Source of the DNA: a virus
Strand: one strand, 5' to 3'
IMG/VR virus record: IMGVR_UViG_3300045988_077852
DNA: 46,784 nt
Within the stretch, counting starts at the first letter, position 1. The number at the start of each line of letters is the position of its first letter. The notes under the pieces were generated by a model. It made no database searches, had not been told where the DNA came from, and worked only from the letters and a program-made list of their open reading frames with translations. The position numbers and the translations under genes were made by a program. Positions 4,525-29,663 of the stretch are shown here, piece by piece.

Positions 4525-4800
4525 ATGAATCTAAATAGAATTATGCGAAAACTACAAAGAGCAATAGTATCAAACGGATTTGTAATAAGCTTAGACACAA
4601 CACAATTCTATTCAGAGGACCAGAAACGAATGATAACAATGTACATCCTGTCTATAAAAGCATATGAGAATACAAGAAAAGGTTGGAAAGACACACGGTA
4701 TGAGATACTAAGAACTGCTTCACAAGTGGACATAATTAAATGCCTGTCTGATATATGGGCAAGTATACGAGAAAGGAATTGGCAAATAAATGCGGAATGA
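4525..4800 (+). CDS. hypothetical protein upstream of terminase (91 aa)
   Basis: ORF track. AAAGGA RBS. Overlaps the terminase start by 11 nt. Confidence 0.6.
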   Translation: MNLNRIMRKLQRAIVSNGFVISLDTTQFYSEDQKRMITMYILSIKAYENTRKGWKDTRYEILRTASQVDIIKCLSDIWASIRERNWQINAE

Positions 4801-6421
4801 ACTTACACAGAAGCAAAGAACATTTGCTCATGCATGGATAAAAAACGGTGGGAATGATTATCAAGCCGCTATCGAAGCAGGATATTCCCCTGCAACAGCG
4901 AAGAACGCAAAAAAGAACATCATTGAAAAGCATGGAGTGAAAGAATATATAGCAGAACTACAAGCCAAAACAGACAAGGAAAACGGCTATGATATTATGA
5001 GTCTTGCAGACATACAGCGAAGACGGTCAATGATCGCCACTGGTGCGTTGCAAGATTCTTTTGGATTTACCCCAGATTTCCCAGACCAGTTAAAAGCCAT
5101 GAATGACTTAGAAAAGGCTTTGACGGTGCAGACAAAGGAAGAGGAAGAAAAGAAAGCAAGAGAAGAAGCATTAAGGAATAAGACATATCACATGGACCTT
5201 GATATAATCCCCGATGTGTTCCATCCAATGGTTAGAGATATAAGGAATCATGGCCATACAGAATATGTATTACCAGGGGGACGTGGTTCGAGTAAATCTT
5301 CTACGATACCTAACATTATAACGGAGCTTATGAGGAATGATCATAACATGCACGCACTTGTTGTAAGACAGGTGTACAACACTGTAAAGGATTCTGTGTA
5401 TGCTAAAACTAAGTGGGCAATAACAAAGCAGGAGTTCACGGAAAAAGAATATAAGTACACAAGCTCGCCTTATGAAATTACCATGAAAGACACAGGGCAA
5501 AAAGTATATTTTCGTGGTGCTGATGACCCAGACAAGATTAAATCAATTTCCCCAGAGTTCGGATATATCGGCATACTGTGGTTTGAAGAACTGGACCAGT
5601 TCGCAGGACCCGAAGCAGTGAGAAATATTGAACAGTCCGCTATTCGTGGTGGAGATAAGGCATATATATTTAAGAGCTTCAACCCACCGAAAAGTGCTAA
5701 CAATTGGGCAAATCAATATTTGCAAGAACCAAAAGACAACAGAATGATTGTAAGAAGCACATATCTAGACGTACCTAAAGAGTGGTTAGGCAAACCGTTT
5801 ATCGAAGAAGCGGAACACCTAAAAGAGATCAGACCCGAAGCGTATGAACATGAATACATGGGCATTGCTAACGGTAACGGTGGGGCAGTATTTGAGTATG
5901 TAGAAGTAAGAAAAATTACAGACAAAGAAATATCACAGATGGACCGCATATATCAAGGCGTTGACTGGGGATGGTATCCAGACAAGTACGCATTTACGAG
6001 GACATACTACGATGCGGCAAGAGAAACGATCTATTTAATAGATGAGCATTGCGTAAATAAGCGATCGAATGAGCAAACAGCCGAATGGATAAAGAAAAAA
6101 GGCTATAACGATTATGCAATCATTTGTGATAGTGCAGAGCCTAAATCTGTAGAGGACTATAGAAACTTAGGTCTTGTGGCACAGGCAGCAGTTAAAGGCC
6201 CAGGGTCAGTTGAATACGGCATGAAATGGCTACAACGTAGGAAGATTGTGATTGACCCACGGAGAACACCATACGCATACAAAGAAATTACAACGTATGA
6301 GTATGATAGAGACAAAGACGGTAATATAATAAGCGGATACCCAGACAGAGACAATCATGCTATTGATTCGTTGAGATACGCATACAACAGAGTGATCATG
6401 AGGAGAGGAGAGAACGCATAA
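4790..6421 (+). CDS. terminase: N-terminal small-subunit-like domain fused to a PBSX-type large subunit (543 aa)
   Basis: Residues 1-~115 (LTQKQRTFAHAWIKNGGNDYQAAIEAGYSPATAKNAKKNIIEKHGVKEYI) match the Terminase_2/P27-type TerS pattern. A K/E-rich linker follows. The TerL part has Walker A GGRGSSKS (nt 5276-5299) and a C-terminal nuclease-type region (DSAEPKS, NHAIDSLRY). There is no stop codon between the two parts. Confidence 0.88.
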   Translation: MRNELTQKQRTFAHAWIKNGGNDYQAAIEAGYSPATAKNAKKNIIEKHGVKEYIAELQAKTDKENGYDIMSLADIQRRRSMIATGALQDSFGFTPDFPDQLKAMNDLEKALTVQTKEEEEKKAREEALRNKTYHMDLDIIPDVFHPMVRDIRNHGHTEYVLPGGRGSSKSSTIPNIITELMRNDHNMHALVVRQVYNTVKDSVYAKTKWAITKQEFTEKEYKYTSSPYEITMKDTGQKVYFRGADDPDKIKSISPEFGYIGILWFEELDQFAGPEAVRNIEQSAIRGGDKAYIFKSFNPPKSANNWANQYLQEPKDNRMIVRSTYLDVPKEWLGKPFIEEAEHLKEIRPEAYEHEYMGIANGNGGAVFEYVEVRKITDKEISQMDRIYQGVDWGWYPDKYAFTRTYYDAARETIYLIDEHCVNKRSNEQTAEWIKKKGYNDYAIICDSAEPKSVEDYRNLGLVAQAAVKGPGSVEYGMKWLQRRKIVIDPRRTPYAYKEITTYEYDRDKDGNIISGYPDRDNHAIDSLRYAYNRVIMRRGENA

Positions 6422-6600: not shown

Positions 6601-8019
6601 ATGGGTATAATAAGCAGAATGAAAGAGATATTAAGTGCCCTTTTTAAACAAAGGGCAAGAGAAGAATTTAAGATTGATACTGTTACCAGTCCAGAGATGC
6701 AGAGAGTTATAGAAAAATGTGCATACATCTATAAGGGCAGTCCGTACTGGTTAGACAAGGACGAACATATCAAGACTATCAACTTTGCAAAAGCGGTGTG
6801 TTCGGAGACAGCACGTCTTGCTACACTTGCAATAGGTATAGAGATAGATGGCAGTGCAAGAGCTGATTGGTTGCAGGAGCAGATAGACAAGGAACTGGAA
6901 CAGGTACGACATCACGTAGAATATGGCTGTGCATACGGTACAGTTGTATTAAAGCCTAACGGTGCAAGTGTGGACTTGATTACACCAGAGAACTTTATAG
7001 TAACAGACGAAAGCAACGGAGAAATTCAAGGAATTGTATTTGTGCATCGTGAAATCTCCAGTGATGGCAAGACGTATTACACGAAGCTAGAGTATCATAG
7101 GTACATCGAGGACGTGTATCAGATTACAAATCGTTGCTATGCTTCTAAGGATGCAAACGATACAGGAAAGCCAATTGACATAGACGAGACACCTTGGAGG
7201 GGAGAACTGGAAAATGTAGGACTTACAAACCTAAACGGACAACGTCTGTATGCAGTTCTTAGGACACCGCAGGCGAACAATGTAGACTTGCATTGTAGTT
7301 TAGGATTGCCTATCTTTTACGAAGCAATAGAAGAACTAAAAGATTTAGACACTGCATACAGCAGGAACGCAACAGAGATATTCGACAGCCGAAGAATGTT
7401 GTTACTAGACTCCGACAAGCTGTTAGAGACTGGTACAAGGGTAAATAATACACAGGATGGATTTGAGAGAAGCAAGAAGCGGTTAAGACTGCCAGAGTAC
7501 GTCAAGAATGTAAATAGCTCAGACATTAAAGGATTCTATCAAGAGGTAAACCCAAGTCTCAACACAGATACACGATTGACAGGAATCAATGCCCTGCTGT
7601 CACAGATTGGGTATAAGTGCGGATTCTCTAACGGATACTTTGTGTTTAACGAAACAACAGGCATCCAGACAGCAACAGGAGTTGAAGCAGAGCAACAGAG
7701 GACGATACAATTTGTTAAGGACGTAAGAGACAAATTACAAGCCTGCATGGATGATCTGATTGCAGCACTTAATATATTCGCTGATCTGTACCAATTAGCA
7801 CCAAGCGGACCGTATGAAACCGTGTATGACTTTGGAGACATTACATATAACGAAGATGAAGATAGAGCGAGATGGTACAGCTATGTTACTTCCAACAAGA
7901 TTCCATTCTGGTACTATCTAGTTAAATTTGAGGGATTCAGTGAAGAAGAAGCAAAAGCACTTGAAGAAGAAGCACAACCGAAAGAGCCAGACTTATTCGG
8001 TGCAAGCGGAGAGGAGTGA
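6601..8019 (+). CDS. portal protein (472 aa)
   Basis: Position immediately after the terminase, size, and an acidic C-terminus. Resembles SPP1 gp6-type portals by eye. Confidence 0.75.
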   Translation: MGIISRMKEILSALFKQRAREEFKIDTVTSPEMQRVIEKCAYIYKGSPYWLDKDEHIKTINFAKAVCSETARLATLAIGIEIDGSARADWLQEQIDKELEQVRHHVEYGCAYGTVVLKPNGASVDLITPENFIVTDESNGEIQGIVFVHREISSDGKTYYTKLEYHRYIEDVYQITNRCYASKDANDTGKPIDIDETPWRGELENVGLTNLNGQRLYAVLRTPQANNVDLHCSLGLPIFYEAIEELKDLDTAYSRNATEIFDSRRMLLLDSDKLLETGTRVNNTQDGFERSKKRLRLPEYVKNVNSSDIKGFYQEVNPSLNTDTRLTGINALLSQIGYKCGFSNGYFVFNETTGIQTATGVEAEQQRTIQFVKDVRDKLQACMDDLIAALNIFADLYQLAPSGPYETVYDFGDITYNEDEDRARWYSYVTSNKIPFWYYLVKFEGFSEEEAKALEEEAQPKEPDLFGASGEE

Positions 8020-8023
8020 AAGC

Positions 8024-8254
8024 ATGGGAAAGTACAGGATTGAAAAATACCTTGAATACCTTAATGGCGAAGATGTAAAACTGCCCGAACCATTTACAAA
8101 ACAAGAAAAGCTGTTGTACAACATCTGCGAAAAAGGAGTTACAGGCAGTACAGAAACAGACAAAACATTATCGCAAGAGGGCAAGCCTGCGGATGCGGCA
8201 GTAGTTGGGAAGATGCTAGATGCGGCACTAATGGTAAAAGACCCAGAAGAATAG
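8024..8254 (+). CDS. small hypothetical protein (76 aa) sharing a DKTL..KPAD..VGK motif with the fibre/esterase
   Basis: ORF track, trimmed to the ATG at 8024 (GGAGAGGAG RBS). Motif TDKTLSQEGKPADAAVVGKML (nt 8156-8218). Confidence 0.55.
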   Translation: MGKYRIEKYLEYLNGEDVKLPEPFTKQEKLLYNICEKGVTGSTETDKTLSQEGKPADAAVVGKMLDAALMVKDPEE

Positions 8255-8266
8255 GCAGGTGGGATT

Positions 8267-9484
8267 ATGTTAACACCTACCTATCTCTGGTATGTGCCAG
8301 AAAAGGCAGAGAAGCAAGCGGAAGAATTGCATAACAAAATTGTATCTGTAATCATTGAACGAATGATGATAAGGCTAGGACGTGGGGAAGATTACCTTTT
8401 CACACCTGTTGACAAGTGGCAGATGGATGTATTGCAGGATGCAGGGTATATCTTGCAAGCGGTGCAGGAAGAGATAGCACAAACGACAAAGATAAGTATT
8501 GCAGAGATCGCACGCACTATGAAAGAAGCAGGAATCAAGGCTCTTGAATGGGATGATGCAGTATATAAGAAAGCAGGTCTTGAACCAACACCCCTTAATG
8601 AGAGTCCTTATATGCAACGATTGATCCAGAGGAATTATGAAAAGACCAATGGAGAGATGCATAACTACACCGGTACAATGCCGAACGCCTGCCACGATAA
8701 TTACATAGATGCAGTAGACAAGGCATACAACCAAACTGCAAGCGGTACAACAAGCTACACAGAAGCTGTCAAAGAAGCGGTTAACGACATTATAGACAAA
8801 GGGGCAGACGTAACCTATCCAAGTGGACGTAGAGACAGCATAGAGACAGCTACAGCGAGAGCGGTCCGTACTGGTGTAAGTCAAATGGCAGCAGATATTA
8901 CAGACGCACGTATGGACGAGATGGATTGGGATATTATCCTAACATCTGCCCATCTGGGAGCCAGAATCGGAAACGGTGGGGATAATTTAACCAATCATTT
9001 CTGGTGGCAAGGCAAGTTTTACAGCAAAAGCGGTAATGACCCAAGATTTCCGCCTTTTTCAGTCTGCGGTATGGGAAACGTGCAGGGAATCCATGGGGCA
9101 AACTGCCGACACTCCCACGGCCCGGGGGATGGAATAAACAATCCGTTTGAGGACTACGACAGCGAAGAGAATCGCAAAGAATACGAGAAACGGAAACGAC
9201 AGAGAGAGCTTGAAAGACGTATCAGAAAGACGAAACGACAGTTAATCGGCATGAAAACGGCTGTGGATAATGCAAAGGACGAAGCCTTAAAGCACGATCT
9301 TGACATGGAGTATCAGAAAAAGGCGGCACTATTGCAGAAGCAAAACAAAGCCTACAATGATTACTGCAAAGAGAACAATCTTAAGAAGCAGAGCGAACGA
9401 CTAAACACAGCAGATTGGAACAGGAGTCAAGCATCATCAGCACGAGGTGCAGCGACACGATACAATAATGCACGAGGTAAATAA
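8267..9484 (+). CDS. minor capsid / head morphogenesis protein (405 aa)
   Basis: Position after the portal. Central region TSAHLGARIGNGGDNLTNHFWWQGKFY...GANCRHSHGPG resembles the phage minor capsid protein 2 / SPP1 gp7-like class. Basic coiled-coil tail. Confidence 0.7.
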   Translation: MLTPTYLWYVPEKAEKQAEELHNKIVSVIIERMMIRLGRGEDYLFTPVDKWQMDVLQDAGYILQAVQEEIAQTTKISIAEIARTMKEAGIKALEWDDAVYKKAGLEPTPLNESPYMQRLIQRNYEKTNGEMHNYTGTMPNACHDNYIDAVDKAYNQTASGTTSYTEAVKEAVNDIIDKGADVTYPSGRRDSIETATARAVRTGVSQMAADITDARMDEMDWDIILTSAHLGARIGNGGDNLTNHFWWQGKFYSKSGNDPRFPPFSVCGMGNVQGIHGANCRHSHGPGDGINNPFEDYDSEENRKEYEKRKRQRELERRIRKTKRQLIGMKTAVDNAKDEALKHDLDMEYQKKAALLQKQNKAYNDYCKENNLKKQSERLNTADWNRSQASSARGAATRYNNARGK

Positions 9485-9816
9485 TGGATACTATAAACAA
9501 AATTATGGTAGCCTGTGGGTGGATTATAACAATTGGTAGTGCGATAGGAGTCTTATATACTGCCTATAAGCATTACAAGAAGCCTACGGACGATTTGAAA
9601 CATCGAATAGATCATATAGAGACAGATATTAAAGAAATTAAACAAAAGCTAAATAGTGACTACAGTGCTATTAATAATCAACGTGATGATATGAACCTAG
9701 TCATGAAAAGCATGTTTAATTTGATTGAGAACAAGATCACAGGAAACAACATTGAGGGTCTAAAAAAAACCAGAGACGATCTGATAAATGCGTTGACAAC
9801 ACACGACAAACAGTGA
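9484..9816 (+). CDS. membrane-anchored coiled-coil protein (110 aa)
   Basis: ORF track. N-terminal hydrophobic helix IMVACGWIITIGSAIGVLYTAY. ATG overlaps the upstream stop (TAATG). Confidence 0.55.
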   Translation: MDTINKIMVACGWIITIGSAIGVLYTAYKHYKKPTDDLKHRIDHIETDIKEIKQKLNSDYSAINNQRDDMNLVMKSMFNLIENKITGNNIEGLKKTRDDLINALTTHDKQ

Positions 9817-10028
9817 GGTGTTTGCTTTTGAAAGTATATGATTTTACCGTACCCGAACTAAATATGTTCCGTACTGATTGCAACTTCACAGATGTTGAAA
9901 GAACATTGTTCGAGTATCGGGCAAAGAATATACCACTAGAGAAATGTGCAGAGCTTATGAACGTAAGTCTGTCTACAGCAAAGAGAATCAGCAGGAGAGT
10001 TAATAACAAGATTATTAGAGTATGTTAA
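9813..10028 (+). CDS. sigma-70 region-4-like HTH protein, possible late-gene regulator (71 aa; start uncertain)
   Basis: ERTLFEYRAKNIPLEKCAELMNVSLSTAKRISRRV resembles a sigma region 4 / LuxR-type HTH. GTG start overlaps the upstream stop. Confidence 0.45.
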   Translation: MRCLLLKVYDFTVPELNMFRTDCNFTDVERTLFEYRAKNIPLEKCAELMNVSLSTAKRISRRVNNKIIRVC

Positions 10029-10039
10029 GGAGAAACATA

Positions 10040-10297
10040 ATGGCTAAATATGTAAAGAAACCAGTTGTGATTGAAGCAGTTACATATGAAGAACTTATAA
10101 AAAATGGACATGGTAAACCAATAGAACTTGAATACAATGGATATATTATCAAAAAATATGATGATGATCGCTATATCATTCCAACATTAGAGGGAGATAT
10201 GTTACTTGGAAAAGATGATATGCTTATAACTGGTGTGGACGGGGAAATCTACCCATGTAAGAAAGAAATCTTTGAAAAGACTTACGAAAAGGCGTAA
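10040..10297 (+). CDS. small phage protein resembling the N4 gp49 / Sf6 gp66 family (85 aa)
   Basis: Trimmed to the ATG at 10040 (AAGGAGA RBS). Pattern KKPVVIEAVTYEE...IPTLEGDMLLGKDDMLITGVDGEIYPCKKEIFEKTYE matches my recollection of that family. Confidence 0.5.
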   Translation: MAKYVKKPVVIEAVTYEELIKNGHGKPIELEYNGYIIKKYDDDRYIIPTLEGDMLLGKDDMLITGVDGEIYPCKKEIFEKTYEKA

Positions 10298-10336
10298 AAA
10301 AGAGGGTATTGAAAAGGCAAAAATCCATGATACAAT
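10294..10336 (+). promoter_or_regulatory. Promoter P1 inside a 26-nt repeat (copy 1) upstream of the tRNA
   Basis: GTAAAAAAGAGGGTATTGAAAAGGCA (10294-10319). TTGAAA (10309-10314), 16 nt spacer, TGa-TACAAT (10331-10336). A near-identical repeat is at 13814-13840. Confidence 0.6.
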
Positions 10337-10504
10337 ATAAATGTAACAAGTAATAAGTTGTTGAATAAATTATTATAAGATTTCATTTTTAGTTTTAAAT
10401 GAGAGTGGTTTGTTTCGGAGATACTTTTTCATGTTATAATACTTTAATCCTTTCTTTATTGTTTTGTTATGTATATAGTACGGTGGATTCCTCACGGAGT
10501 CCGT

Positions 10505-10578
10505 GGAAGTATAACTCAGTTGGTCAGAGTAGTCGGCTCATAACCGACCTGTCACAGGTTCGAGCCCTGTTGCTTCCA
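10505..10578 (+). tRNA. tRNA with CAU anticodon (elongator Met or lysidine-modified Ile2; not initiator-like)
   Basis: Hand-folded cloverleaf. Acceptor GGAAGTA/TGCTTCC (one G-U). D arm ACTC-AGTTGGTCA-GAGT. Anticodon arm GTCGG-CTCATAA-CCGAC. Variable loop CTGTC. T arm ACAGG-TTCGAGC-CCTGT. Discriminator A. No encoded CCA. Confidence 0.9.
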
Positions 10579-10705
10579 TTTGCTCACTGTTGTGAGCATG
10601 AGAAATCATTTTTGAATTTCCTCAATTTTTTGGTTTAAATTTCATTTTTCAACACGACACCTTTTTTCATCAATTGGTGTTCCTCAATCTTATCCTTATT
10701 GTTCA

Positions 10706-10739
10706 AGCACCATGACCCCTATCATGGTGCTAATTTTTT
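10706..10739 (+). terminator. Intrinsic terminator downstream of the tRNA
   Basis: Stem agcaccatga (10706-10715) / tcatggtgct (10722-10731), followed by aaTTTTTT. Confidence 0.7.
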
Positions 10740-10760
10740 AATTTAATATGATACTTTTAT

Positions 10761-10793
10761 GAGACTTTAACGACCTGTTAGAGTCTCTTTTTT
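10761..10793 (+). terminator. Second intrinsic terminator
   Basis: Stem gagact (10761-10766) / agtctc (10782-10787), followed by T6. Confidence 0.55.
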
Positions 10794-10829
10794 AATGCGA
10801 TAATTTACACATAAAAGGGAGGTGGAAGA

Positions 10830-11270
10830 GTGAACGGATATAACTATAATCCTTATGCACCGATGTATCAAGACACGATGCAATTGCAGGATAGGCTAAA
10901 TCAGTTACAACAGATGCAACAGCAGTACAATAAACCGATGCAAGAACCAGTCAATCCAGTACCTACGCAAAACGTGAACTGGATACAAGTTGCAGGTATA
11001 GAGGGAGCAAAGAACCAGATTGTACAGCCAGGGGCTACAGCATGGATGATGGATAACAATGCACCTTTCTTTTATGTAAAGAGTGTAGATGGAATGGGCA
11101 GTGCAACTTTTAAGGTGTTTAGGTTTGAAGAGATACCACCAGAAGCCACGCAGACAGTCCAAAAACAGAATGTAAACTATGATAATAGATATGTTACAAG
11201 AACAGAGTTTGAAGAGCTTCTAGCAAAACTAGGAGAGCAACCAGAGAAAGGAGAGTTAAGCAATGAGTAA
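10830..11270 (+). CDS. hypothetical protein: Q/N/M/P-rich N-terminus plus a compact C-terminal domain (146 aa; GTG start)
   Basis: ORF track. GGGAGG RBS. N-terminus NGYNYNPYAPMYQDTMQLQDRLNQLQQMQQQYNKPMQ. C-terminal part WIQVAGIEGAKNQIVQPGATAWMMDNNAPFFYVKSVDGMGSATFKVFRFEE. Confidence 0.6.
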   Translation: MNGYNYNPYAPMYQDTMQLQDRLNQLQQMQQQYNKPMQEPVNPVPTQNVNWIQVAGIEGAKNQIVQPGATAWMMDNNAPFFYVKSVDGMGSATFKVFRFEEIPPEATQTVQKQNVNYDNRYVTRTEFEELLAKLGEQPEKGELSNE

Positions 11271-11520
11271 TCCTTTAATGAACATGATAGGCGGTATGAT
11301 GGGAAACAACAATCCTATGCAGATGGTACAGCAGGTAATGGGCATGGTAAGAGGGTCTAACAATCCGCAGTCTATGGTTGAGAGCATGGCACAGACAAAC
11401 CCCGCGATCAAGCAGGCAATGGAAATGTGCAAGGGAAAGAACCCACAAGAAGTGTTTAATAGCCTATGTCAACAGCAGGGCATGAATCCACAGGATATTG
11501 TGGACAAAGTGAACAAATAG
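11263..11520 (+). CDS. Met/Gln/Asn-rich small protein with five NPxx(M/V/F) repeats (85 aa)
   Basis: ORF track. AAGGAGAG RBS. Sequence NNPMQMV..NNPQSMV..TNPAIKQAM..KNPQEVF..MNPQDIV. Confidence 0.6.
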   Translation: MSNPLMNMIGGMMGNNNPMQMVQQVMGMVRGSNNPQSMVESMAQTNPAIKQAMEMCKGKNPQEVFNSLCQQQGMNPQDIVDKVNK

Positions 11521-11570
11521 ATATTAAGCGGTGCACAGCTTGGTAAATAAATTTATGGAGGACAACAACA

Positions 11571-12260
11571 ATGAATGAAGCAATGGGACTCACTGCGGCA
11601 GATGTAGCGGCAGTGACAAAAAATGACGGATATGATAACGGCTTCGGCAACGGTGGTTGGTGGATTTGGATTATTTTAATTGCTTTTCTTTTCTGTGGTA
11701 ACGGATGGGGAAGAAATAACGATACCGCAACGACCGCAGGCGAAAACGCTTTCTTATCCGATGAGTTTGTAAAGAGAGATATTTTCAATACAAACCAGAA
11801 CGTATCTAATACAGCTTGTCAGACACAGAGAGACGTATTAGAAAGCAGATACACAACACAGTTAGGATTACAGCAGATGCAGGCACAACAGCAGGCTTGT
11901 TGCTGTGAAACACAGAAAGAAGTGCTACAGAACCGCTATGATGCGGCTTTAATGGCACAGAATATGCAGGCACAGATGGCACAGTGTTGCTGTGATATTA
12001 AGGAAACAATCCTCGCAGACGGACAGGCTACACGCCAGTTGATGCAGGACAACACAATCCAGAATCTTAGAGATAAACTTGCGGACAGAGATAGAGACTT
12101 ACAGTTATCTAACTTCCAGATTTCGCAGGTATCACAGACTAAGAACATTGTGGATGCTGTTAGACCATTCCCAACACCTGCATACATTACAGCAAGTCCT
12201 TATGTATCCTATAATGGGTATGCATACGGTGGTTGTAACTGCGGAAGTGTAAATGTGTAA
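11571..12260 (+). CDS. single-pass membrane protein with a duplicated CCC-containing Q-rich repeat and a Cys-rich C-terminus (229 aa)
   Basis: ORF track. GGAGG RBS. TM segment GGWWIWIILIAFLFCGNGWG. Tandem ~29-aa repeat C..TQ(R/K)(D/E)VL(E/Q)(S/N)RY...MQAQ..(CCC) at nt 11817-11993. Tail PFPTPAYITASPYVSYNGYAYGGCNCGSVNV. Confidence 0.65.
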   Translation: MNEAMGLTAADVAAVTKNDGYDNGFGNGGWWIWIILIAFLFCGNGWGRNNDTATTAGENAFLSDEFVKRDIFNTNQNVSNTACQTQRDVLESRYTTQLGLQQMQAQQQACCCETQKEVLQNRYDAALMAQNMQAQMAQCCCDIKETILADGQATRQLMQDNTIQNLRDKLADRDRDLQLSNFQISQVSQTKNIVDAVRPFPTPAYITASPYVSYNGYAYGGCNCGSVNV

Positions 12261-12366
12261 ATAATTCAAAGCTTGTTGGAGAATCCATATCTACTAAGTA
12301 GACTAGCAATATATTGACGATAGGGTGTCGGGTTCGGCATCCTATTTTTGTTTAGGAGGGAAAATT

Positions 12367-12795
12367 ATGTTAAATGCGGTAAATGTAGCACAGCAGGATG
12401 TAAACAGTGGTGCAAACGTACTATTTGCGAATACACGATATAGTAGCAGACGTTGTACTTGTAATTATGGGTGGCTGAATCATGTAGAGGGGTCTGGTCT
12501 GTTTACGTTAACGAATAGATCGAACTGCCCTATGACTGTAGAGGTAGAATTTAACGGAAATGTATCCGCTAATGCAACAGGAGCAACGGCACTTGCTGTA
12601 GAGCTTAACGGAGAAGCTATTGGTGGAACAGAAATGGACTATACAGTAGTTACAGCGAACACATTTCAGAACGTGGGAGCAACAACGGTTGTAACTGTAC
12701 CATCTGGCGGTAGCTTAATCGTAAGCATCGGAAATGTAGGAACAACAACGGCAATAGTAAAAGATGCGAATATTATTATAAAGCGTATCTCTTAA
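12367..12795 (+). CDS. small protein resembling BclA C-terminal / BxpB-type (C1q/TNF-like jelly-roll) exosporium domains (142 aa)
   Basis: Trimmed to the ATG at 12367 (AGGAGGG RBS). Beta-rich pattern ...LFTLTN...TVEVEFNGNVSANATGATALAVELNGEAIGGTE...VVTVPSGGSLIVSIGNVGTTTAIVKDANIIIKRIS. This parallels the BclA-CTD segments LTIQVNGVPVPGTG and ASIIIEKVA as I recall them. Confidence 0.45.
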   Translation: MLNAVNVAQQDVNSGANVLFANTRYSSRRCTCNYGWLNHVEGSGLFTLTNRSNCPMTVEVEFNGNVSANATGATALAVELNGEAIGGTEMDYTVVTANTFQNVGATTVVTVPSGGSLIVSIGNVGTTTAIVKDANIIIKRIS

Positions 12796-12807
12796 GGAGG
12801 TGCGATC

Positions 12808-13398
12808 ATGATTGAATTTACAAACAATCTTGAAGTAACAAAAACAGAAGATATCTTTGACGAGATCAACAAAAGATATGTAGCGGCTATGATGATACAC
12901 GGTCAAATGGCAGACTATTTCAACTTCTTAGGTTTGAAAGGCTACAAAAGATTACATGAATACCAGTTTCTTACAGAAAGCTTGGAGAGACGTGAAATAT
13001 GCAGGTATTTTGTAGATCATCACGGCAAGCTTTTAAAAGATTCTTTTAGCGGTACTATAAAAGTGATTCCCGACTCTTGGTATACAGCCAGTAGACTAAG
13101 TATCGGAAAATCCACAAAGCAGAAAGCCGTAGAGGATGGCTTTATAGAGTATCACAACTGGGAGAAAGAGACAAAAGAAGCCTATGAGAAGTACGCACAG
13201 CAACTTAGAACGAACGGAAACGTATCGGATGCACTATTTGTAGAATGTCTGGTAAAAGACGTATCTAAAGAGCTAGAAACGGTTGAAAAGATGGTTACTG
13301 ATCTAATCTCTGTAGGATACGACATGGTGTATATTACAGAGACACAGGACTGCATACATGAGAAATACAAAAAGAAGCTTAAGGAGGTCAAATTATGA
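12808..13398 (+). CDS. helical protein, possibly a ferritin-like four-helix bundle (196 aa)
   Basis: ORF track. AAGGAGG RBS. AAMMIHGQMADYFNFLGLKGYKRLHEYQFLTESLERREICRYFVDHHGK loosely parallels the ferritin helix A-B region (YF...L.GfakfF.hqs.EEreHa.kl). Metal ligands are only partly conserved. Confidence 0.3.
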   Translation: MIEFTNNLEVTKTEDIFDEINKRYVAAMMIHGQMADYFNFLGLKGYKRLHEYQFLTESLERREICRYFVDHHGKLLKDSFSGTIKVIPDSWYTASRLSIGKSTKQKAVEDGFIEYHNWEKETKEAYEKYAQQLRTNGNVSDALFVECLVKDVSKELETVEKMVTDLISVGYDMVYITETQDCIHEKYKKKLKEVKL

Positions 13399-13817
13399 GT
13401 GAAATCAAACATGTTCTGGAAGAACAGCTAGAAAGAGAAAAAAACTCAGCATTAAAACAGCTCACAACATCTAATCTTGATGCAATGTATAAGATTACAA
13501 CAACATTATGCAATCTTGAAAAGATGGAGCATGGAGACATAGCGGAAACCGTCATGGATGCAGGAGAGAATCTTATTAAGAAGTACAGCAATGGCAAGTA
13601 TGATAAAAATATAGATGCATTGTATGACAACTACTTAAGTGCTAAAATGGCATACAAAGAAAACGGAGATCAAGGACACCGTGATAAGCTTATGGAATCG
13701 GTCGGTAGATTGATGGTGGAAGTGTATGATATGCTTTCTTCTATGGTTATTGATTCCGACTTTATGGACGAGAGAAAAGAGATACAGCGACAGATAAAGA
13801 AACTTGCGGAAATGTAA
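13395..13817 (+). CDS. hypothetical helical protein (140 aa)
   Basis: ORF track. AAGGAGG RBS. ATGA overlap with the upstream gene. Last gene of the cassette. Confidence 0.6.
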   Translation: MSEIKHVLEEQLEREKNSALKQLTTSNLDAMYKITTTLCNLEKMEHGDIAETVMDAGENLIKKYSNGKYDKNIDALYDNYLSAKMAYKENGDQGHRDKLMESVGRLMVEVYDMLSSMVIDSDFMDERKEIQRQIKKLAEM

Positions 13818-13858
13818 AAAAAGAGGGTATTGAAACGGCATATTTTAGGGTTTACAAT
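13814..13858 (+). promoter_or_regulatory. Promoter P2 inside repeat copy 2
   Basis: GTAAAAAAAGAGGGTATTGAAACGGCA (13814-13840). TTGAAA (13830-13835), 17 nt spacer, TACAAT (13853-13858). Confidence 0.6.
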
Positions 13859-13961
13859 AAATATGTAGGAATTATGCAGATTTGCTACAGCCTCCTTGTA
13901 AGTACAGAGTTTTTTAAGCGTTTTTGGTTACATGACGACAGGAAAAGAGTTCGAGGCTCGA

Positions 13962-13980
13962 GTGGGGTTCAAGTCCCCAC
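13962..13980 (+). other. Orphan tRNA-like T-arm (GTGGGG-TTCAAGT-CCCCAC) in the scaffold-gene leader
   Basis: Canonical GGTTCAAGTCC T-loop sequence. I could not build an acceptor, D or anticodon arm around it. Confidence 0.4.
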
Positions 13981-14064
13981 ATTTCTTTTACCTTGACTTA
14001 GGTATATAAGTCTTAATCCATTACCGCAGACATAGCGGTATACAAACAATGTAGGAGGATATAT

Positions 14065-14694
14065 ATGCAGAATTACGAACAGATTTTAGCAGAATTAGGA
14101 ATCGAAATCCCAGAAGAGAAAAAGGCAGAGCTTAAAAAAAGACATGCCGAAAATTACAAGACTGTAGCTGACTACAATAAACAGGTAGAGAAAAAAGATG
14201 AATACAAAACATCTTTAGACGATGTACAGACCAGATTAGCAGAATTAGAGAAAGAAGATGTTGACGGTCTTAAGACTAAGATTACAACATTAACACAGGA
14301 GCTTGCAGACGAAAAAGAAGCAAGAGCAAAAGAAGCTAAGCAGACAGAGTTAAGAGACAAGGTAAAAGATTTCTTATCTGATAAAAAATTTGTAAATGCA
14401 ATCACAGAAGACTCTATCCGTTCCCAGATGATTCAGAAGTTAGAAGAAGAGAATGGGAAAAATGCAGAAGATGTATTTAAAGAACTTACTACTAAAGATG
14501 GGAAACCAATTGAGAATATCTTGGTTGACGAAAAGAAAGCACCAGCTCCTAATATCCCAAGCTTTACGACTAAGTTCAACAGCGGAGAGCAGAAAAAGGG
14601 AACACAGAAGTTAAGGGAAATGTCTTTAGACGACAGAATGAAGCTTAAGGCAGAGGACCCAGACTACTATGCAACCTTATTAAATGACAGATAG
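14065..14694 (+). CDS. scaffolding protein (209 aa)
   Basis: Highly charged coiled-coil sequence, located immediately upstream of the major capsid gene. Resembles the GP20-type scaffold class. AGGAGG RBS. Confidence 0.7.
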   Translation: MQNYEQILAELGIEIPEEKKAELKKRHAENYKTVADYNKQVEKKDEYKTSLDDVQTRLAELEKEDVDGLKTKITTLTQELADEKEARAKEAKQTELRDKVKDFLSDKKFVNAITEDSIRSQMIQKLEEENGKNAEDVFKELTTKDGKPIENILVDEKKAPAPNIPSFTTKFNSGEQKKGTQKLREMSLDDRMKLKAEDPDYYATLLNDR

Positions 14695-14771
14695 ATAATA
14701 CCGACTCACAGTATGGAAGTGAGCCGCTAACCTAAAAATCCCTTAATAGTTGTAGGTAGATGGGACAAAGA

Positions 14772-14816
14772 AAAGTCCTTATCTATTCTTATTTAGGGGT
14801 AGAAAGGACTTTTTTT
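14772..14816 (+). promoter_or_regulatory. Hairpin plus T7 tract overlapping the major-capsid RBS (attenuator or partial terminator)
   Basis: 9-bp stem aaagtcctt (14772-14780) / aaggacttt (14804-14812), with a T-run to 14816. The capsid ATG is at 14817. The GAAAGGA RBS lies in the 3' arm. Confidence 0.45.
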
Positions 14817-15836
14817 ATGCCAAGAACAGGATCATTTGGTGGTTTTGATTTTGACCCAGAGGTTTTCGCTGAGTTTATGTCAGAAAACCCAACATGGAAT
14901 GATGTGATTATTGCATCTGGTGTGTTAGCACAGGACAATACAATCATGGACTTAATCGGAGAAAAAGGAAACGTTGCAACAATTCCTTTTTATACACCGA
15001 TTGATGAACAAGACTCACAGGCTTTGAACAACGATGGAGAAACAAACAATACACCTGTTGAAATCACAGGAAAGAAACAGACTTGTATGTTAATTCAGAG
15101 AATGAAAGCTTGGAAAGCAAAAGACTTTACAAAAGAGTTAACAGGTGCAGACCCTATGACTCATGTTGCAAACTCTGTTGCAGGATTTTATAAGCAAGTA
15201 AGAACACGTGACTTAATGACTACAGTTGATGCAGTTTTAAGCCTGTCTGGTATGGAAAACCATATTACAGACTTATCTTTAACTGGCGAGGGCACTGTAG
15301 GAGATGCAAACAAAATTGATGATACAACACTTATCTTCGCACAGCAGAAAGCTTTAGGAGATTCCGCTGACAAGATGGGATTACTTGTATTAAACTCTTA
15401 CATCTACGCAAAGTACAAAGCAATGGGACTTGTTGATTACAACAAATACACTATTACTAACGCAGTAGAAAGAGAAGTAAATCTTCCTACAATCGGTGGA
15501 TTTATTCCACTGGTAACAGACAGATTTACAGTTGATACAACAGGAACAAACCCAGTATACAAAACTTATATGCTTGGTACAGGTTCAGTATTGACTTGTG
15601 ATAAGACTAACTATGAAAATCCTTATTATACAGACTATGACCCAGAAACATCTGCCGGTATTGAAAAGCTGTATACAAAACAGGGTTATGTATTACATCC
15701 TAACGGATTTTCTATCAATGCTAACAAGATTGCAAAAGAGTCTCCTACAAACGCAGAGTTAGGAGCTAAAGGAAACTGGTCTTTAGCATTTAACCAGAAG
15801 AATATCCGCATGGGTGTTATTAAATCCAACGGATAA
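14817..15836 (+). CDS. major capsid protein (339 aa)
   Basis: Trimmed to the ATG at 14817. Position after the scaffold, and size. The upstream in-frame extension lies in the hairpin region. Confidence 0.75.
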   Translation: MPRTGSFGGFDFDPEVFAEFMSENPTWNDVIIASGVLAQDNTIMDLIGEKGNVATIPFYTPIDEQDSQALNNDGETNNTPVEITGKKQTCMLIQRMKAWKAKDFTKELTGADPMTHVANSVAGFYKQVRTRDLMTTVDAVLSLSGMENHITDLSLTGEGTVGDANKIDDTTLIFAQQKALGDSADKMGLLVLNSYIYAKYKAMGLVDYNKYTITNAVEREVNLPTIGGFIPLVTDRFTVDTTGTNPVYKTYMLGTGSVLTCDKTNYENPYYTDYDPETSAGIEKLYTKQGYVLHPNGFSINANKIAKESPTNAELGAKGNWSLAFNQKNIRMGVIKSNG

Positions 15837-19420: not shown

Positions 19421-22400
19421 ATGGCTACACAAAAAGCGGATGGAAGTATTTATATCAAAACAGAAATTGATACAACCGAAGCAAAAGCAAGTGTGAAAGA
19501 AATCGCATCTCTTTTAAAACGTTTATCCAATCAAGTAAAAACCATTGGAAAATCAATGGAAAAAGCCATAAGTGGCGGTATAAAAGCACCAGATACAAAA
19601 GGTATGGATGTTGTCGAAGAAAAAGCAAAGACCGTGGCTGAGGAACTGGAAAAGACCGCACAGGCAGAAAAGAAGCTAGAAAGCATAGATATTAAATCTA
19701 ATGCACTTGATACGTTAGATAAAGCGATAGAAACCACAGGACAGAAGCTTGCAGAGTTGGAAAAAGCACAGATGGATGTATTCAACAGAAATCAGAGTGC
19801 AACTTCTTCCCCTGCATTTCAAGCAATGGAGAGTGCCGCTTCTAAATTAGATCAGCAATATGAACAGTTGATTGCAAAAAAGAAGCAGTTGGAAACATCT
19901 ACAACAGGAAAGACTGGACTGCCTAAGACTGGAAAGTTGACAGGTGGAACAGGTCTGGCAAGTGAGGAAAGTGCTAACGCATTAGCTAAACTTAATGCAG
20001 AGATCACAGGCACAGAAACAAAAGTAGAACTGTTAAATAACAGCTTGGAGCAAACAGCACAGGCACAACAAAAGATAAGTGACAGCTCTATCAATACTAC
20101 AGCTTATCAGATTCTTGAGCAGACACTACAGCAGGTAGAATCACAGTTTAATCAAGTTGCACAGACTCAGCAAGAGTTGTTCGCAAGGAATCAGAGTGTT
20201 ACTTCATCTCCTGCTTTTATGGCATTAGAGAGTGCGGCAGAGAAGCTTGGTCGGCAGTATGATTCATTACTTGCTAAGAAACGGCAGTTAGAAAGCGGTG
20301 GGGGAGCAGTACAAACACCTGCGATCAAGACAGCCCCTATGACTGGTGCATATTCTGCCACGGCATCTAGTGCAAGTCAAAAAGCTTTGGATGCCTTAAA
20401 CAAAGAAATAACACAGACAGATGCAAAAGAAAAAGGACTTGTTAACACAAATAGTAGGCTTGGTTCATCATTTAAGAATGTCAGTCAGTCTGTGGACAGT
20501 GCTAAGACAAAGACAGGCGGTATTTCATCTATCTTTAGTAGAATGGGTGGAGTAGTATCTGGACTTGGAAAACGTCTTGCAGGACTGGCACAGAACTTCA
20601 CAAGCACTACAAACAGTGCTAACAATGCAAGATTTTCAATCGGTCGAATGGTTGGAATGAGTATCTTATATTCTACTGTTTTTGGTATGATTTCTAAAGT
20701 AAATAGTGGAATCATGACAGGTATAAATAACCTTGCTCAATATTCGTCTGCTACTAATGCTTCGATATCTTCTATGATGTCGGCATTAACACAGCTACAG
20801 AACAGTTTAGCAACAGCATTTGCACCAATACTGTCTGTAGTAGCACCTATATTAACGGCATTTATAAATATGCTGTCAAGAGCGATTACTTATGTAGGTA
20901 TGTTCATAGCAGCACTGACAGGACAGAAATCTTTTACAAAAGCAAAAGCTGTACAAGAAGATTATGCTGCATCGTTGCAAAAGACTTCTAAGAGTTCTAA
21001 TAGTGCAGCGAAGTCTACAAAGAAAAACGCAAATGCAACAAAAAAAGCAAATAAAGAGATGCAGACATATCTTTCTGGTCTGGACGAAATCAGACAGTAT
21101 CAGAAAGAAAAAGACAATACACCTAGTTCAAACTCAACGCCATCAACAGGTGGCGGAGGTGGTGGCGGATACACGGGACCATCCATTGGAGATATGTTTG
21201 AGAAAGTTCCTATTGAATCTTCTATTGCAGACATTGCTAAGAAGATTAAGAACCTCATAAAGAAAGAGGACTGGGAGGGACTTGGGACTTACATTGCATC
21301 TGGTATCAATAAAGGATTGCAAAAAATCTATGATGCCATCAATTGGGATAATGTAGGCCCGAAGATTACATATTTTGTGAACGCATTTACACGGACATTC
21401 AATAGTCTTGTTGATCACATAGACTGGGATTTAATGGGACGTACTGTGGGTGCAGGTATTAATACAATTGTCAACACACTGAATCTGTTGATAGAGGGAA
21501 TCAATTGGAAAAATCTTGGTTCAAAAATTGCAACAGGTATCAACGGCTTATTCAATGAAGTGAATTGGAATAATGTAGGGCGGTTGTTTACGAATAAAAT
21601 AAATGTTCCGTTTCAAATGTTAGAGGGAGCTGTAAATACTCTTAACTGGGCAAAAATAGGAACGTCAATAGGTGGATTTTTGAATGGTGCGATCAACCAG
21701 ATAGATGTTAAGTCTATTGGTACAAGCTTATCTGGATTAGCATTAGGAATATTAACAACATTAGATAATGCACTTACTACAACAAACTGGTCACAGCTTG
21801 GCACAAAATTAGCAACATTATTAACATCTATTGATTGGGTTGGAATATTTGTTAGTGCAATATCTGTTGCAGGAAAAGCAATCACGGCATTAACACAGCT
21901 TGGTGTGTCTTTTATGGATAACTTGGCAAAAGGTATTACAAATGGGACACAGCAGTTTATTAGTAAGGGATTATCAGCATTGACGAGTTTTACTGCAAAC
22001 TTAAGAATAAATGCAGGAAAATTAGTAGATTCTGGTCTAAATCTTATGTTGAATCTTGCAAAAGGTATTGCTAATTCGCTTCCAGACATAATCAAAAATG
22101 TTCCACAGATTGTTAGCAATATTGCAAATACAATCAATGACAATGCACCTAAAATATTGATGGCAGGCATACAACTTATTGGGATATTGATTAAAGGATT
22201 GATTCAAGCAATCCCTACTCTTATTGCGAGTATTCCACAAATTATAGTAGCTATGGTTAATGTATTTACAGCGTATAACTGGTTATCACTTGGTAAAAGT
22301 TTAATTACAGGTATTAAAAACGGTATTGTAGCTGCAAAAAGTACAGCAGTTGAAGCTATGACAAATACATATAATGGGTTGCTTAATGCGATAAAGAATT

Positions 22401-23168: not shown

Positions 23169-23549
23169 ATGGCACAGGATTATATAAAAATCAATAATAA
23201 AAAAGTCTGGCAACCAGATTCAGACACAGCTGTAGCATTTGAAACTACCTATACGCAAGGTAGCACAAGGGCACAGTCTGGTAAAGGAAAGTTTACCCCG
23301 ATGTTCACAGTAGAGCGATTTACATACAGTGCATCGGATGTGCCAATGTCTAAGGTTACGGAAATATTAGAAATGGTGGCACGTGGTAAATCTTTTGATT
23401 TACATTATTTTTCTGTATTTTACGGAGAGTGGAGAACAGCAAAGTTTTATGTCGGACAGGTATCGGACATTAAGATAAAAACACTTAAAAATAACCATGA
23501 AAAAGTATCAAGTATATCTTTCAATATGCAGGGGGTTAACCCGATATGA
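23169..23549 (+). CDS. putative distal tail protein (126 aa, short)
   Basis: Position immediately after the tape measure. AAGGAG RBS. Confidence 0.4.
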   Translation: MAQDYIKINNKKVWQPDSDTAVAFETTYTQGSTRAQSGKGKFTPMFTVERFTYSASDVPMSKVTEILEMVARGKSFDLHYFSVFYGEWRTAKFYVGQVSDIKIKTLKNNHEKVSSISFNMQGVNPI

Positions 23550-29239: not shown

Positions 29240-29396
29240 TTAACTAAAGGAAAATTTAGTTAATCAAAAGAAGTTTTATCAAGTATAAAAAAACCCCCTA
29301 CAAACTGTAGTGGGGAAAGTATAAAATTGAAGATTAAGTATGAAAAATCTTCAAATACATATTAACATATATTTCCACAAAATGAAAGGAGAAATC

Positions 29397-29663
29397 ATGA
29401 ATCTTAAATTACGTTTCAAGAATAAAGCAACATTAGTAGCATTGGCTTCTGCCTTAATTGCATTTATCTATCAGATTCTAGGAATCTTAGGTATCACAGC
29501 ACCAATCGCACAGGATGAAGTATCACAGCTTGTAGGTATCATCCTTAATATCTTAGTGGCTGTCGGGGTATTGGTGGACCCAACAACAAAGGGAATCGGG
29601 GATAGCGAGCTTGCAAAGAACAAGACGGATATTGCTGAGGTAATCGAATATAAGGAGGACTAA
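29397..29663 (+). CDS. holin (88 aa)
   Basis: Trimmed to the ATG at 29397 (AAGGAGA RBS). KLRFKNKATLVALASALIAFIYQILGILGI...ILNILVAVGVLVDPTTKGIGDS matches the Firmicute phage holin pattern. Immediately upstream of the endolysin. Confidence 0.75.
   Translation: MNLKLRFKNKATLVALASALIAFIYQILGILGITAPIAQDEVSQLVGIILNILVAVGVLVDPTTKGIGDSELAKNKTDIAEVIEYKED

Follow-up and report, generated by a model that had tools for sequence, protein, structure and literature searches.

A widespread, strongly conserved phage gene module between the minor-capsid and scaffold genes of a temperate siphovirus genome

The locus

The window, by which we mean the whole stretch of viral DNA analysed here (46,784 nucleotides; IMG/VR record IMGVR_UViG_3300045988_077852), is a temperate siphovirus genome or prophage, as judged from the presence of an integrase and from PHROGs assignments. 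Positions 10830-13817 hold six genes, pA to pF, that lie between the genes for minor capsid protein 2 and the scaffold. Comparison of gene orders shows this block to be one copy of a widespread, strongly conserved and relocatable phage gene module with the fixed order A>(B)>C>(x)>D>(E)>F. The local order in the window is minor capsid, up110, up71, up91, the first copy of a direct repeat, a tRNA gene, two terminators, pA-pF, the second copy of the repeat, a 250-nt leader and the scaffold gene; the features described below between up110 and the scaffold gene are all on the plus strand. A megablast search with 8 kb of the region gave no DNA-level match among GenBank phages.

Conservation and fixed position

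Relatives were collected by tblastn and two scans of IMG/VR, which yielded about 160 loci with pC or pD; a survey with hidden Markov models (HMMs) added 176 further IMG/VR loci, in which order and strand were the same throughout. Among the former, every locus with intact flanks reads minor capsid > up110 > up71 > (variable) > A > B > C > D > E > F > scaffold > major capsid protein (MCP), and the position of the block is the same in every recovered relative, down to 25-35% identity. In diverged relatives the identity to the window is 52-55% for the portal, 48-54% for the minor capsid protein and 44-46% for the scaffold, compared with 72-77% for pC, 56-74% for pF, 61-67% for pD, 56-67% for pE and 53-67% for pA. 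The portal, minor-capsid and scaffold proteins are all less conserved than the six proteins. Among about 100 close loci pC is 97-100% identical (mostly 99-100%), and the portal, scaffold and MCP are mosaic.

The original prediction, made from the letters of the window, had taken the block for an accessory cassette, acquired as a repeat-bounded unit by phages in which the minor-capsid gene normally runs straight into the scaffold gene. No relative with such a direct junction was recovered, nor one with the same flanks that lacks the block; all relatives were recovered via pC or pD, block-free relatives being thereby unsampled, and no search by the flanks only was made. Acquisition as a unit is contradicted by the fixed position, by conservation above that of the head genes and by the confinement of the repeat to the close clade (see below). 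The six genes do co-occur elsewhere as a unit. Their place is also shared by related phages, an outcome that the prediction had counted against itself, provided that the proteins belonged to ordinary decoration or assembly families, and this second part did not hold. As far as comparison of the loci can tell, the block is one copy of an old, strongly conserved gene module and not a recent insertion.

Morons, described by Hendrix and colleagues, are autonomous promoter-gene-terminator units in the late operons of lambdoid phages. The module is like them in lying between head genes with a terminator and a promoter-like element upstream and another such element downstream (consensus matches only). 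Morons, however, are single genes or small units that vary among close relatives, whereas a block of five to seven genes in fixed order is present here; moreover, the module is more conserved than the flanking head genes and is common to phage groups infecting different phyla. Moron-like variation in presence and absence was not found among the loci recovered via pC or pD, as the block is in every relative with intact flanks.

Relocation and reach of the module

At least four genome contexts contain genes in the order A>(B)>C>(x)>D>(E)>F: the head module, the neighbourhood of lysis genes, the early region and a place near an integrase. The head-module position is that of window-type and L003-type phages; in many loci of the type of Butyrivibrio phage Ceridwen the module comes directly 3' of the endolysin gene. 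In the HMM survey the head context reads terL > portal > minor > pre > up110 > up71 > A > B > C > D > F > scaffold; elsewhere in that survey the module stands immediately 3' of the endolysin gene or immediately 5' of holin and amidase genes (L182), and it also occurs on contigs of roughly 55-117 kb. Ceridwen itself has pre-A-B-C-D, an intervening gene and an F-like gene, 3' of the endolysin gene. In Clostridium perfringens phages (PMQ04, 17DYC and others) an A-like protein, a Met-rich B-like protein, C (E 2e-27), a Cys-containing β-rich protein, x, a protein in the F position and an E-like protein (E 9e-6) are encoded after amidase, holin and antirepressor genes and ahead of recombination, thyX and single-stranded DNA-binding protein genes.

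In the crAss-like phages cr116_1 and cr53_1 the pC gene lies 3' of holin and lysis-regulator genes and, in cr116_1, also just 5' of a scaffold-like gene and the MCP gene. The pC HMM matches the crAss-like proteins at about 1e-33; their architecture is the same, and the D position is again taken by a Cys-containing β-rich protein. The cultured Bacteroides uniformis phage C3_41T2LP carries its pC gene among recombination genes, and vir215, a virus assigned to Methanomassiliicoccales, carries one (annotated phrog_16490) between tail and diversity-generating retroelement genes and the integrase gene. Overall, the pC family comprises 1,355 representative clusters (at 50% identity) at E<=1e-3 and 513 at E<=1e-10, including many crAss-like phages, C3_41T2LP and viruses assigned to Methanomassiliicoccales; the crAss-like homologues are annotated as "spike protein/glycoprotein" or "outer capsid protein/viral fiber". 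The exact pC sequence of the window occurs on 231 contigs. Relatives of pC in bacterial genomes (Coprococcus comes, Marvinbryantia, Megasphaera and others) are always in a prophage context; none of those found lies in a sporulation locus, and no plasmid-borne copy was found.

Several additional genes accompany the module. An open reading frame (ORF) of about 70 residues, x, with an N-terminal hydrophobic segment and a coiled coil, lies between pC and pD in many relatives (e.g. L067 7737-7943, L137 8356-8571 and L165 6694-6891) and is absent from the corresponding interval of the window (12261-12366). A gene for a protein of 125-130 residues, pre (phrog_3754; L003 5364-5756, L001 6047-6424), is directly 5' of pA in Ceridwen-type loci and ahead of up110 and up71 in L003-type loci; the clade of the window lacks it. 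Genes resembling Ceridwen QHJ73770, presumably a homing endonuclease, interrupt the module at B|C, C|D or D|F in several loci and are also found in neighbouring head genes (L170 8241-8798 on the minus strand, L178, L198, L199, L205, L292-L301 and others).

The PHROGs catalogue lists the six families separately, with unknown function, and neither the synteny nor the reach of the module was found described there or in the literature searched, which covered RAGATH-21, phage BclA C-terminal domains, ferritin-like prophage genes, TNF-like decoration, Ceridwen and the crAss-like 'spike protein'. The single families, as PHROGs, and two familiar folds (BclA_C-like and ferritin) are already known; new are their constant association in one module, the transcriptional anatomy of this module and its spread over viruses of different phyla.

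Transcription signals

Both intrinsic terminators that the original prediction had placed after the tRNA gene were confirmed. The first is a terminator-like hairpin 3' of the tRNA (10706-10731). The second (10761-10787) is conserved and lies directly after up71 in diverged relatives, where it appears to be the true left boundary of the module's transcription unit. It is followed by an extended -10-like element, TGCGATAAT (10796-10804), a putative promoter. This element is found about 25-45 nt 5' of pA in six of seven aligned lineages and about 100 nt 5' of it in L070, and its A..AAT columns are invariant. The up71-pA spacers of diverged relatives likewise hold a homologue of the 10761-10787 terminator and then a conserved TGCnATAAT. 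In such relatives pA begins 94-150 nt past up71, after the terminator and without any repeat, so the first repeat copy, proposed as the left edge of the block, does not mark it.

A further terminator-like hairpin with a U-run (12319-12346) is situated just 5' of the ribosome-binding site of pD and divides A-B-C from D-E-F. A hairpin precedes pD in 12 of 13 diverse loci; the stem sequences differ, and both the pairing and the position are kept. It is preceded by a conserved AGTAGTCTTGCAA motif. This pattern suggests attenuation or processing between A-B-C(-x) and D-E-F. All six ORFs have strong ribosome-binding sites of the GGAGG type, as had been noted. Their tight coupling was borne out for A/B (8-nt overlap), E/F (4-nt overlap) and D-E (12 nt apart) and not for B-C (50 nt) or C-D (106 nt). 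With a terminator and a -10-like element upstream, an internal hairpin and a separate promoter-like element downstream, the module looks like a transcription unit of its own.

The six proteins

Searches of pA-pF and their flanks against Pfam, NCBIfam and PADLOC gave no credible match on the six proteins, and the PHROGs matches, for all six or at least five of them, are to families of 'unknown function' (phrog_16490, 9288, 20016, 21718, 17879 and 28802). The statement that none of them belongs to a standard virion or assembly family is therefore upheld. Diverged members of A, B, C, x, E and F and the C. perfringens protein in the D position gave only noise against Pfam, and profile searches of the PDB with pD, pA and pF returned no match. 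By inspection, no signal peptide was seen in any of the six.

pA (10830-11270; 146 aa, GTG start; phrog_21718) has a Q/N/P-rich N-terminus, a conserved β-rich core and a C-terminal 'YVTREEF' helix. pB (11263-11520; 85 aa) is Q/N-rich with NPxxM-type repeats, and B-like genes are found in the matching position in the L003, Ceridwen and C. perfringens types. The composition claims made earlier for the block hold, with 16.5% Met in pB and ten Cys in pC. pC (11571-12260; 229 aa; phrog_16490) is the most conserved protein of the module. Its conserved N-terminus is followed by a W-rich hydrophobic stretch of 12-14 residues between Gly-rich segments, and the remainder includes three long helices, an invariant CCC triplet and a Cys-rich tail; a conserved region reads ADGxATRxLxQxNTIQxLRDKL / VRPxPxPAY. 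The AlphaFold2 (AF2) model of pC, with a mean predicted local distance difference test (pLDDT) value of 44, is unusable and too poor for a structure search, and the secondary structure is of low confidence. pF (13395-13817; 140 aa; phrog_28802) is helical, and F-like proteins end the module in most lineages. In L003 (8435-8989) and Ceridwen (L001 9301-9687) these proteins contain low-complexity inserts rich in R/G/Y/D/S that the window pF lacks; an insert of the same type is found in the protein encoded 5' of pC in cr53_1 (L355 4628-5263).

pD (12367-12795; 142 aa; phrog_20016) is β-rich and has a conserved Cys pair. The C-terminal domain of BclA, a glycoprotein of the Bacillus exosporium, is a C1q/TNF-like trimeric knob (PF18573). 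The resemblance of pD to this domain, first noticed from the sequence pattern, is supported at the level of the family: PF18573 matches seven of 14 family members (best E 2.3e-8), precomputed PF18573 assignments exist for the homologues P0091, P0110 and P0113, and one UniRef entry is named 'BclA C-terminal domain-containing protein'. The length of about 140 residues and the β-rich pattern also agree. The pD of the window itself falls below Pfam significance, with no match at E<=1, and a profile search of PDB sequences with pD gave no BclA entry. pD differs from BclA in that it stands alone: no exosporium-targeting motif or GXX collagen repeats were found, and the 142-residue protein begins directly with the globular domain, without a collagen-like stalk or an exosporium-targeting N-terminus. 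It also differs in being encoded by a phage, beside a Cys-rich helical protein. That pD is a copy of the phage's own fibre tip was ruled out, as there is no paralog within the window.

pE (12808-13398; 196 aa) was suspected to be ferritin-like, and the AF2 model (pLDDT 84; predicted template-modelling score 0.83) supports a ferritin fold, with helices A (13-40), B (44-72), C (101-135), D (139-168) and E (173-194) and a long loop between B and C. The top 50 PDB matches in Foldseek are all ferritins, with template-modelling (TM) scores of 0.75-0.82 normalized to the target over 170-183 columns, and the neighbours of pE in BFVD are phage Dps/ferritin-like proteins. The predicted fold resembles classical prokaryotic ferritins (Archaeoglobus fulgidus 1s3q/3kx9 and E. 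coli FtnA) along its full length, long B-C loop and short E helix included, and a profile search gives weak matches at the corresponding helices. Nevertheless, pE has no Pfam ferritin match, is only 12-18% identical to these proteins and has an invariant motif, GKSTKQKAVEDGF, of its own. In the HMM alignment the ferroxidase ligands of E. coli FtnA correspond as E17 to the invariant R23, Y24 to H31, E50 to E57 and H53 to E60; a weak hhalign alignment to FtnA pairs E130 with E155 and Q127 with V152 and leaves E94 in a gap. On these alignments, the diiron ferroxidase ligands are replaced where mappable, although E57 and E155 are retained. pE is missing from L003-type and Ceridwen-type modules and is therefore not a core member.

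A ferritin fold raises the possibility of a metal or redox function, in which pE, pC (through CCC and its CxC tail), pB and the Cys pair of pD would bind or buffer Fe, Cu or Zn, or guard the phages of strict anaerobes against oxygen. This would accord with the TM scores of pE and its Dps/ferritin-like neighbours, the invariant CCC and Cys-rich tail of pC, the Met content of pB with its MxxM-like spacing and the fact that all hosts named in the records are gut anaerobes. We consider it unlikely, as the mappable ferroxidase ligands are replaced (E17 by the invariant R23, H53 by E60), pE is absent from two module types and a metal-binding family was detected in none of the proteins.

The direct repeat, the accessory slot and the tRNA gene

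The direct repeat AAAAAAGAGGGTATTGAAA[A/C]GGCA is 24 nt long and occurs at 10296-10319 and 13817-13840 with 23 of 24 positions identical; these are the only two matches in the window, and none was seen in 100 shuffles. The original prediction had set the copies at 10294-10319 and 13814-13840. The repeat is real, and the start given for copy 2 is off by one (the 26-nt string fits 13815-13840 with two mismatches). Each copy does sit at a stop codon, overlapping the TAA of up91 (10295-10297) and that of pF (13815-13817), and the promoter-like hexamers are present in both: TTGAAA-16-TACAAT at 10309-10336 (with TG), ahead of the tRNA, and TTGAAA-17-TACAAT at 13830-13858, ahead of the scaffold leader, the TTGAAA lying within the repeat in each case. 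Taken over the whole region, promoter-like matches do not exceed chance expectation (33 observed, 29.4 expected). Both copies are found in 99 of 100 close loci, and copy 1 starts exactly at the end of the variable upstream gene in at least four different upstream contexts. In diverged relatives the repeat was not found. Since copy 1 tracks the end of the upstream gene and diverged relatives lack the repeat, we regard it as a duplicated promoter-like element specific to the close clade of the window, on the evidence of the aligned loci, and not as a recombination scar.

Upstream of the module, up110 (9484-9816) encodes a small protein that has a hydrophobic helix at its N-terminus as well as a coiled coil; the gene precedes the module in window-type and L003-type phages. 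All of its matches, which are to spanin and holin PHROGs among others, are weak (phrog_1009, 1.6e-5; Rz-like spanin phrog_739, 3.8e-4; DUF7365, 5e-4). up71 (9813-10028), directly 5' of the module in relatives (54-76% identity), encodes a 71-residue helix-turn-helix protein resembling σ70 region 4; it matches phrog_1190 'RNA polymerase sigma factor' (E 3.5e-6), and the Sigma70_r4 and r4_2 matches are weak but consistent across the family. up91 (10022-10297; phrog_419) is a variable cargo gene outside the conserved module, missing or swapped in many close relatives. The slot from up71 to the tRNA (10022-10500) is a hot-spot for such cargo, with up91 here, a Tad2-like gene (PF11195) in L163 and other genes of 85-120 residues in L161, L162 and L164.

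The tRNA gene with anticodon CAU, reported earlier, is confirmed at 10504-10579 by its cloverleaf and anticodon (ARAGORN, tRNA-Met(CAT); Rfam tRNA, 65.4 bits). It is a variable accessory element that is not at this position in diverged relatives; many diverged loci have an up71-pA spacing of 94-150 nt, without tRNA, up91 or repeat. As that spacer holds the terminator and TGCnATAAT, the tRNA and up91 are best seen as additions in the accessory slot. Elsewhere, a tRNA(CAU) gene lies 3' of pF in L077 and L073. ATG makes up 4.6% of the codons of the cassette and 2.2% of those of other late genes (about 2.1-fold enrichment), which may explain the presence of a tRNA(CAU) near the module. Direct repeats and a tRNA thus mark a duplicated promoter-like element and an accessory slot here, and not the ends of an inserted island.

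These results bear on the view that the block is a recently acquired, repeat-bounded cassette for lysogenic conversion that acts on the spore coat or exosporium. Its appeal lies in the fold likeness of several products to exosporium and coat parts (a BclA_C-like protein, Cys-rich proteins and a ferritin fold, which the CotJC and CotF classes share), in the moron-like arrangement of promoter and terminator and in the temperate nature of the phage, which has an integrase. Nothing beyond the fold resemblance speaks for an action on spores. The module has the same position in all recovered relatives and is conserved above the head genes; the repeat is specific to one clade, and its first copy borders the variable tRNA/up91 slot instead of the conserved block. 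Furthermore, the module is carried by phages of Butyrivibrio, Megasphaera and Bacteroides, which are not known to sporulate, and by archaea-assigned viruses; the regions examined in crAss-like and C. perfringens phages showed no integrase, and the bacterial relatives of pC are all in phage contexts, never in sporulation loci. Comparative genomics largely refutes this view, which we consider very unlikely.

The swappable small genes of the adjacent slot, including the Tad2-like gene, would also fit a module for counter-defence or host takeover, e.g. one that neutralizes a membrane-associated defence system, as would the early-region position in C. perfringens phages and C3_41T2LP and the appearance of an independent transcription unit. 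Counter-defence genes are typically variable and patchy even between close relatives. The module, by contrast, is fixed in order and highly conserved over about 340 loci, gave no PADLOC or other defence-related match and, at five to seven genes, would be unusually large among known anti-defence loci, so that a role of this kind seems quite unlikely.

The spacer and leader before the scaffold gene

Relatives have a pF-scaffold spacer of 400-790 nt. A RAGATH-21 RNA (RF03097), scoring 72.6-86.3 bits where the gathering score is 70.3, was found in this spacer in five of eight relatives scanned, at L002 5745-5831, L073 9592-9665, L003 9121-9205, L070 9558-9652 and L066 9584-9669, in the equivalent of window positions 13841-14064. 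RAGATH-21 is always 5' of tRNAs and of the scaffold-capsid genes here. The window has no match to the RAGATH-21 covariance model even at E<=10 and, on this comparison, has lost the RNA; the same search rules out the repeat as a RAGATH-21 remnant.

The spacer also contains zero to three tRNA genes in relatives (Ile-UAU, Met, Tyr, Ser, Lys). The orphan T-arm described earlier in the window (about 13941-13986) is real and, as it aligns with the T-arms of the intact tRNAs of relatives, represents a decayed tRNA gene. Between it and the scaffold gene lies a structured leader (13995-14064), with conserved hairpins at 13995-14012 and 14023-14039 and AATCC at 14015-14019. Compensatory changes are seen in 12 of 21 predicted pairs of the leader. 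The invariant AATCC stretch is predicted to pair with the Shine-Dalgarno sequence of the scaffold gene; covariation is silent on this pairing owing to its invariance. The leader could be a translational control element.

Other features of the window genome

At the left end of the window, within or beside the phage genome, lies a transposase gene (73-1329; phrog_2331, E 4e-159). The terminase gene (4790-6421) encodes 543 residues, of which 2-126 match small-subunit and 71-540 large-subunit PHROGs, and its product looks like a small-large terminase fusion. The terminase of L164 likewise looks fused (Terminase_2 and Terminase_3/6N), and L161-L163 have separate genes. The portal gene (6601-8019) was assigned from its position and its homology to relatives. 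Between it and the gene for minor capsid protein 2 (8267-9484; PF06152) lies p108 (7928-8254), whose product has a 24-residue motif in common with the N-terminal part of the tail-fibre protein (58% identity, E 1.6e-5). Downstream of the leader are the scaffold gene (14065-14694; PF06810) and the major capsid gene (14760-15836; phrog_247), followed by genes assigned from PHROGs for the tape-measure protein (19421-23155), a tail protein (23546-26953), the tail fibre (27803-29239), a holin (29340-29663), an endolysin (29665-30420) and, on the minus strand, the integrase (30706-31959).

Possible function of the module

We tentatively suggest that pC and pD might form a cysteine-linked stalk-and-knob assembly in the host membrane that is made late and acts on lysis, egress or exclusion. 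pC would be an oligomeric stalk with a W/G-rich hydrophobic anchor, about 150 residues of long helices, the invariant CCC and a Cys-rich tip; pD would be the knob, joined to pC via cysteines and drawn from a family of BclA-C or C1q/TNF type with trimer-forming members. The Q/M-rich pA and pB, the ferritin-fold pE and the helical pF would serve as assembly or accessory factors. The assembly, produced late in infection and anchored in the cytoplasmic membrane of the host, would modulate the end of the cycle, either the timing of lysis and egress or the exclusion of incoming phage, and would not build capsids. This suggestion is consistent with the hydrophobic segments of pC, x and up110, with the location of the module beside lysis genes in at least five lineages and with its independent transcription signals and extreme, holin-like conservation. 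The spread over viruses of monoderm and diderm bacteria and archaea-assigned viruses would fit a common target such as the cytoplasmic membrane.

The N-terminal hydrophobic segment, long helices and conserved cysteines of pC recall the i-spanins (lambda Rz class) and viral class I fusion proteins. The module is near holin and endolysin genes in several lineages, and crAss-like pC homologues are annotated as 'spike protein/glycoprotein'. In contrast to spanin systems, no o-spanin or lipobox protein was seen by inspection among A-F, pC has no spanin or holin PHROG match and its hydrophobic stretch measures 12-14 residues. The named hosts of close relatives are monoderm Lachnospiraceae; with most hosts being monoderm Clostridia, and some archaea, there would be no outer membrane to fuse.

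Several points weigh against an assembly in the host membrane. The hydrophobic stretch of pC is short for a transmembrane helix, and its AF2 model cannot be used. pD lacks a signal peptide by inspection and known BclA_C relatives are extracellular or virion-borne, which together favour a location on the virion. The two largest clades and cr116_1 carry the module immediately 5' of the scaffold and capsid genes, and a position beside lysis genes might signify no more than a location at a junction between modules. No BclA_C similarity is detectable in the proteins at the D position of C. perfringens and crAss-like phages. The stalk-and-knob arrangement, its oligomeric state and its location are all inferred, no homology assigns a function and the role of the ferritin-fold protein is left unexplained.

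The same two proteins could instead make up a virion fibre or decoration, in which trimers of pC form a coiled-coil stalk plugged into the capsid or neck by its N-terminus and hydrophobic segment, and pD is the distal C1q/TNF-like knob; A, B, E and F would be chaperones or minor components, and the cysteines would cross-link once outside the anaerobic cell. A knob that binds an environmental ligand (e.g. gut glycans) and not a host receptor would explain both the conservation and the spread across phyla. A stalk with a trimeric knob is a common viral fibre design (adenovirus fibre, PRD1 P5), to which the BclA-C-like pD would conform, and in window-type and L003-type phages, as in cr116_1, the module stands just ahead of the scaffold and capsid genes, which agrees with a structural role. 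Inspection showed no signal peptide in any of the six proteins, so that lysis or carriage on virions would be their simplest way out. The absence of plasmid copies among those found and the sample sources, which where named are all gut or faecal, are also compatible with a fibre. Other annotators have labelled pC homologues 'outer capsid protein/viral fiber' and 'spike protein/glycoprotein', but these labels probably stem from generic coiled-coil similarity. Fibres usually rank with the most variable proteins of a phage, whereas no protein of the module is as conserved as pC; in C. perfringens phages and C3_41T2LP the module is surrounded by early, replication or recombination genes, and its terminator, promoter-like element and internal terminator give it the appearance of a separate transcription unit. 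Ferritin-fold and Met-rich proteins are atypical of virions, and the tail-fibre genes of the window hold no paralog. We rank a fibre slightly below the membrane-anchored assembly and hold the two about equally likely, each a possibility that falls well short of being probable.

More broadly, the block may be an undescribed virus-encoded machine built of the fusion-peptide-like, Cys-locked helical pC and its β-sandwich partner pD. Such a machine, conserved in tailed viruses that infect Firmicutes, Bacteroidota and perhaps methanogenic archaea, would act in a step at the cytoplasmic membrane or on the particle that lies outside the holin/endolysin/spanin, superinfection-exclusion and decoration categories. 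We put this forward as conjecture, and the idea that the module is a genuinely new kind of system is held with the same reserve.

Biological significance

Defining the module joins about seven separate families of "hypothetical protein" into one testable unit. Cultured carriers are available among phages of Butyrivibrio (Ceridwen), of C. perfringens (such as PMQ04 and CPD1) and of Bacteroides (C3_41T2LP), and there is a prophage in Coprococcus comes MSK.16.63. The phages that carry the module are abundant in gut viromes, and a well-conserved block of five to seven genes that keeps its order while moving between genome regions, across viruses of Clostridia, crAss-like phages and archaea-assigned viruses, very likely does something important.

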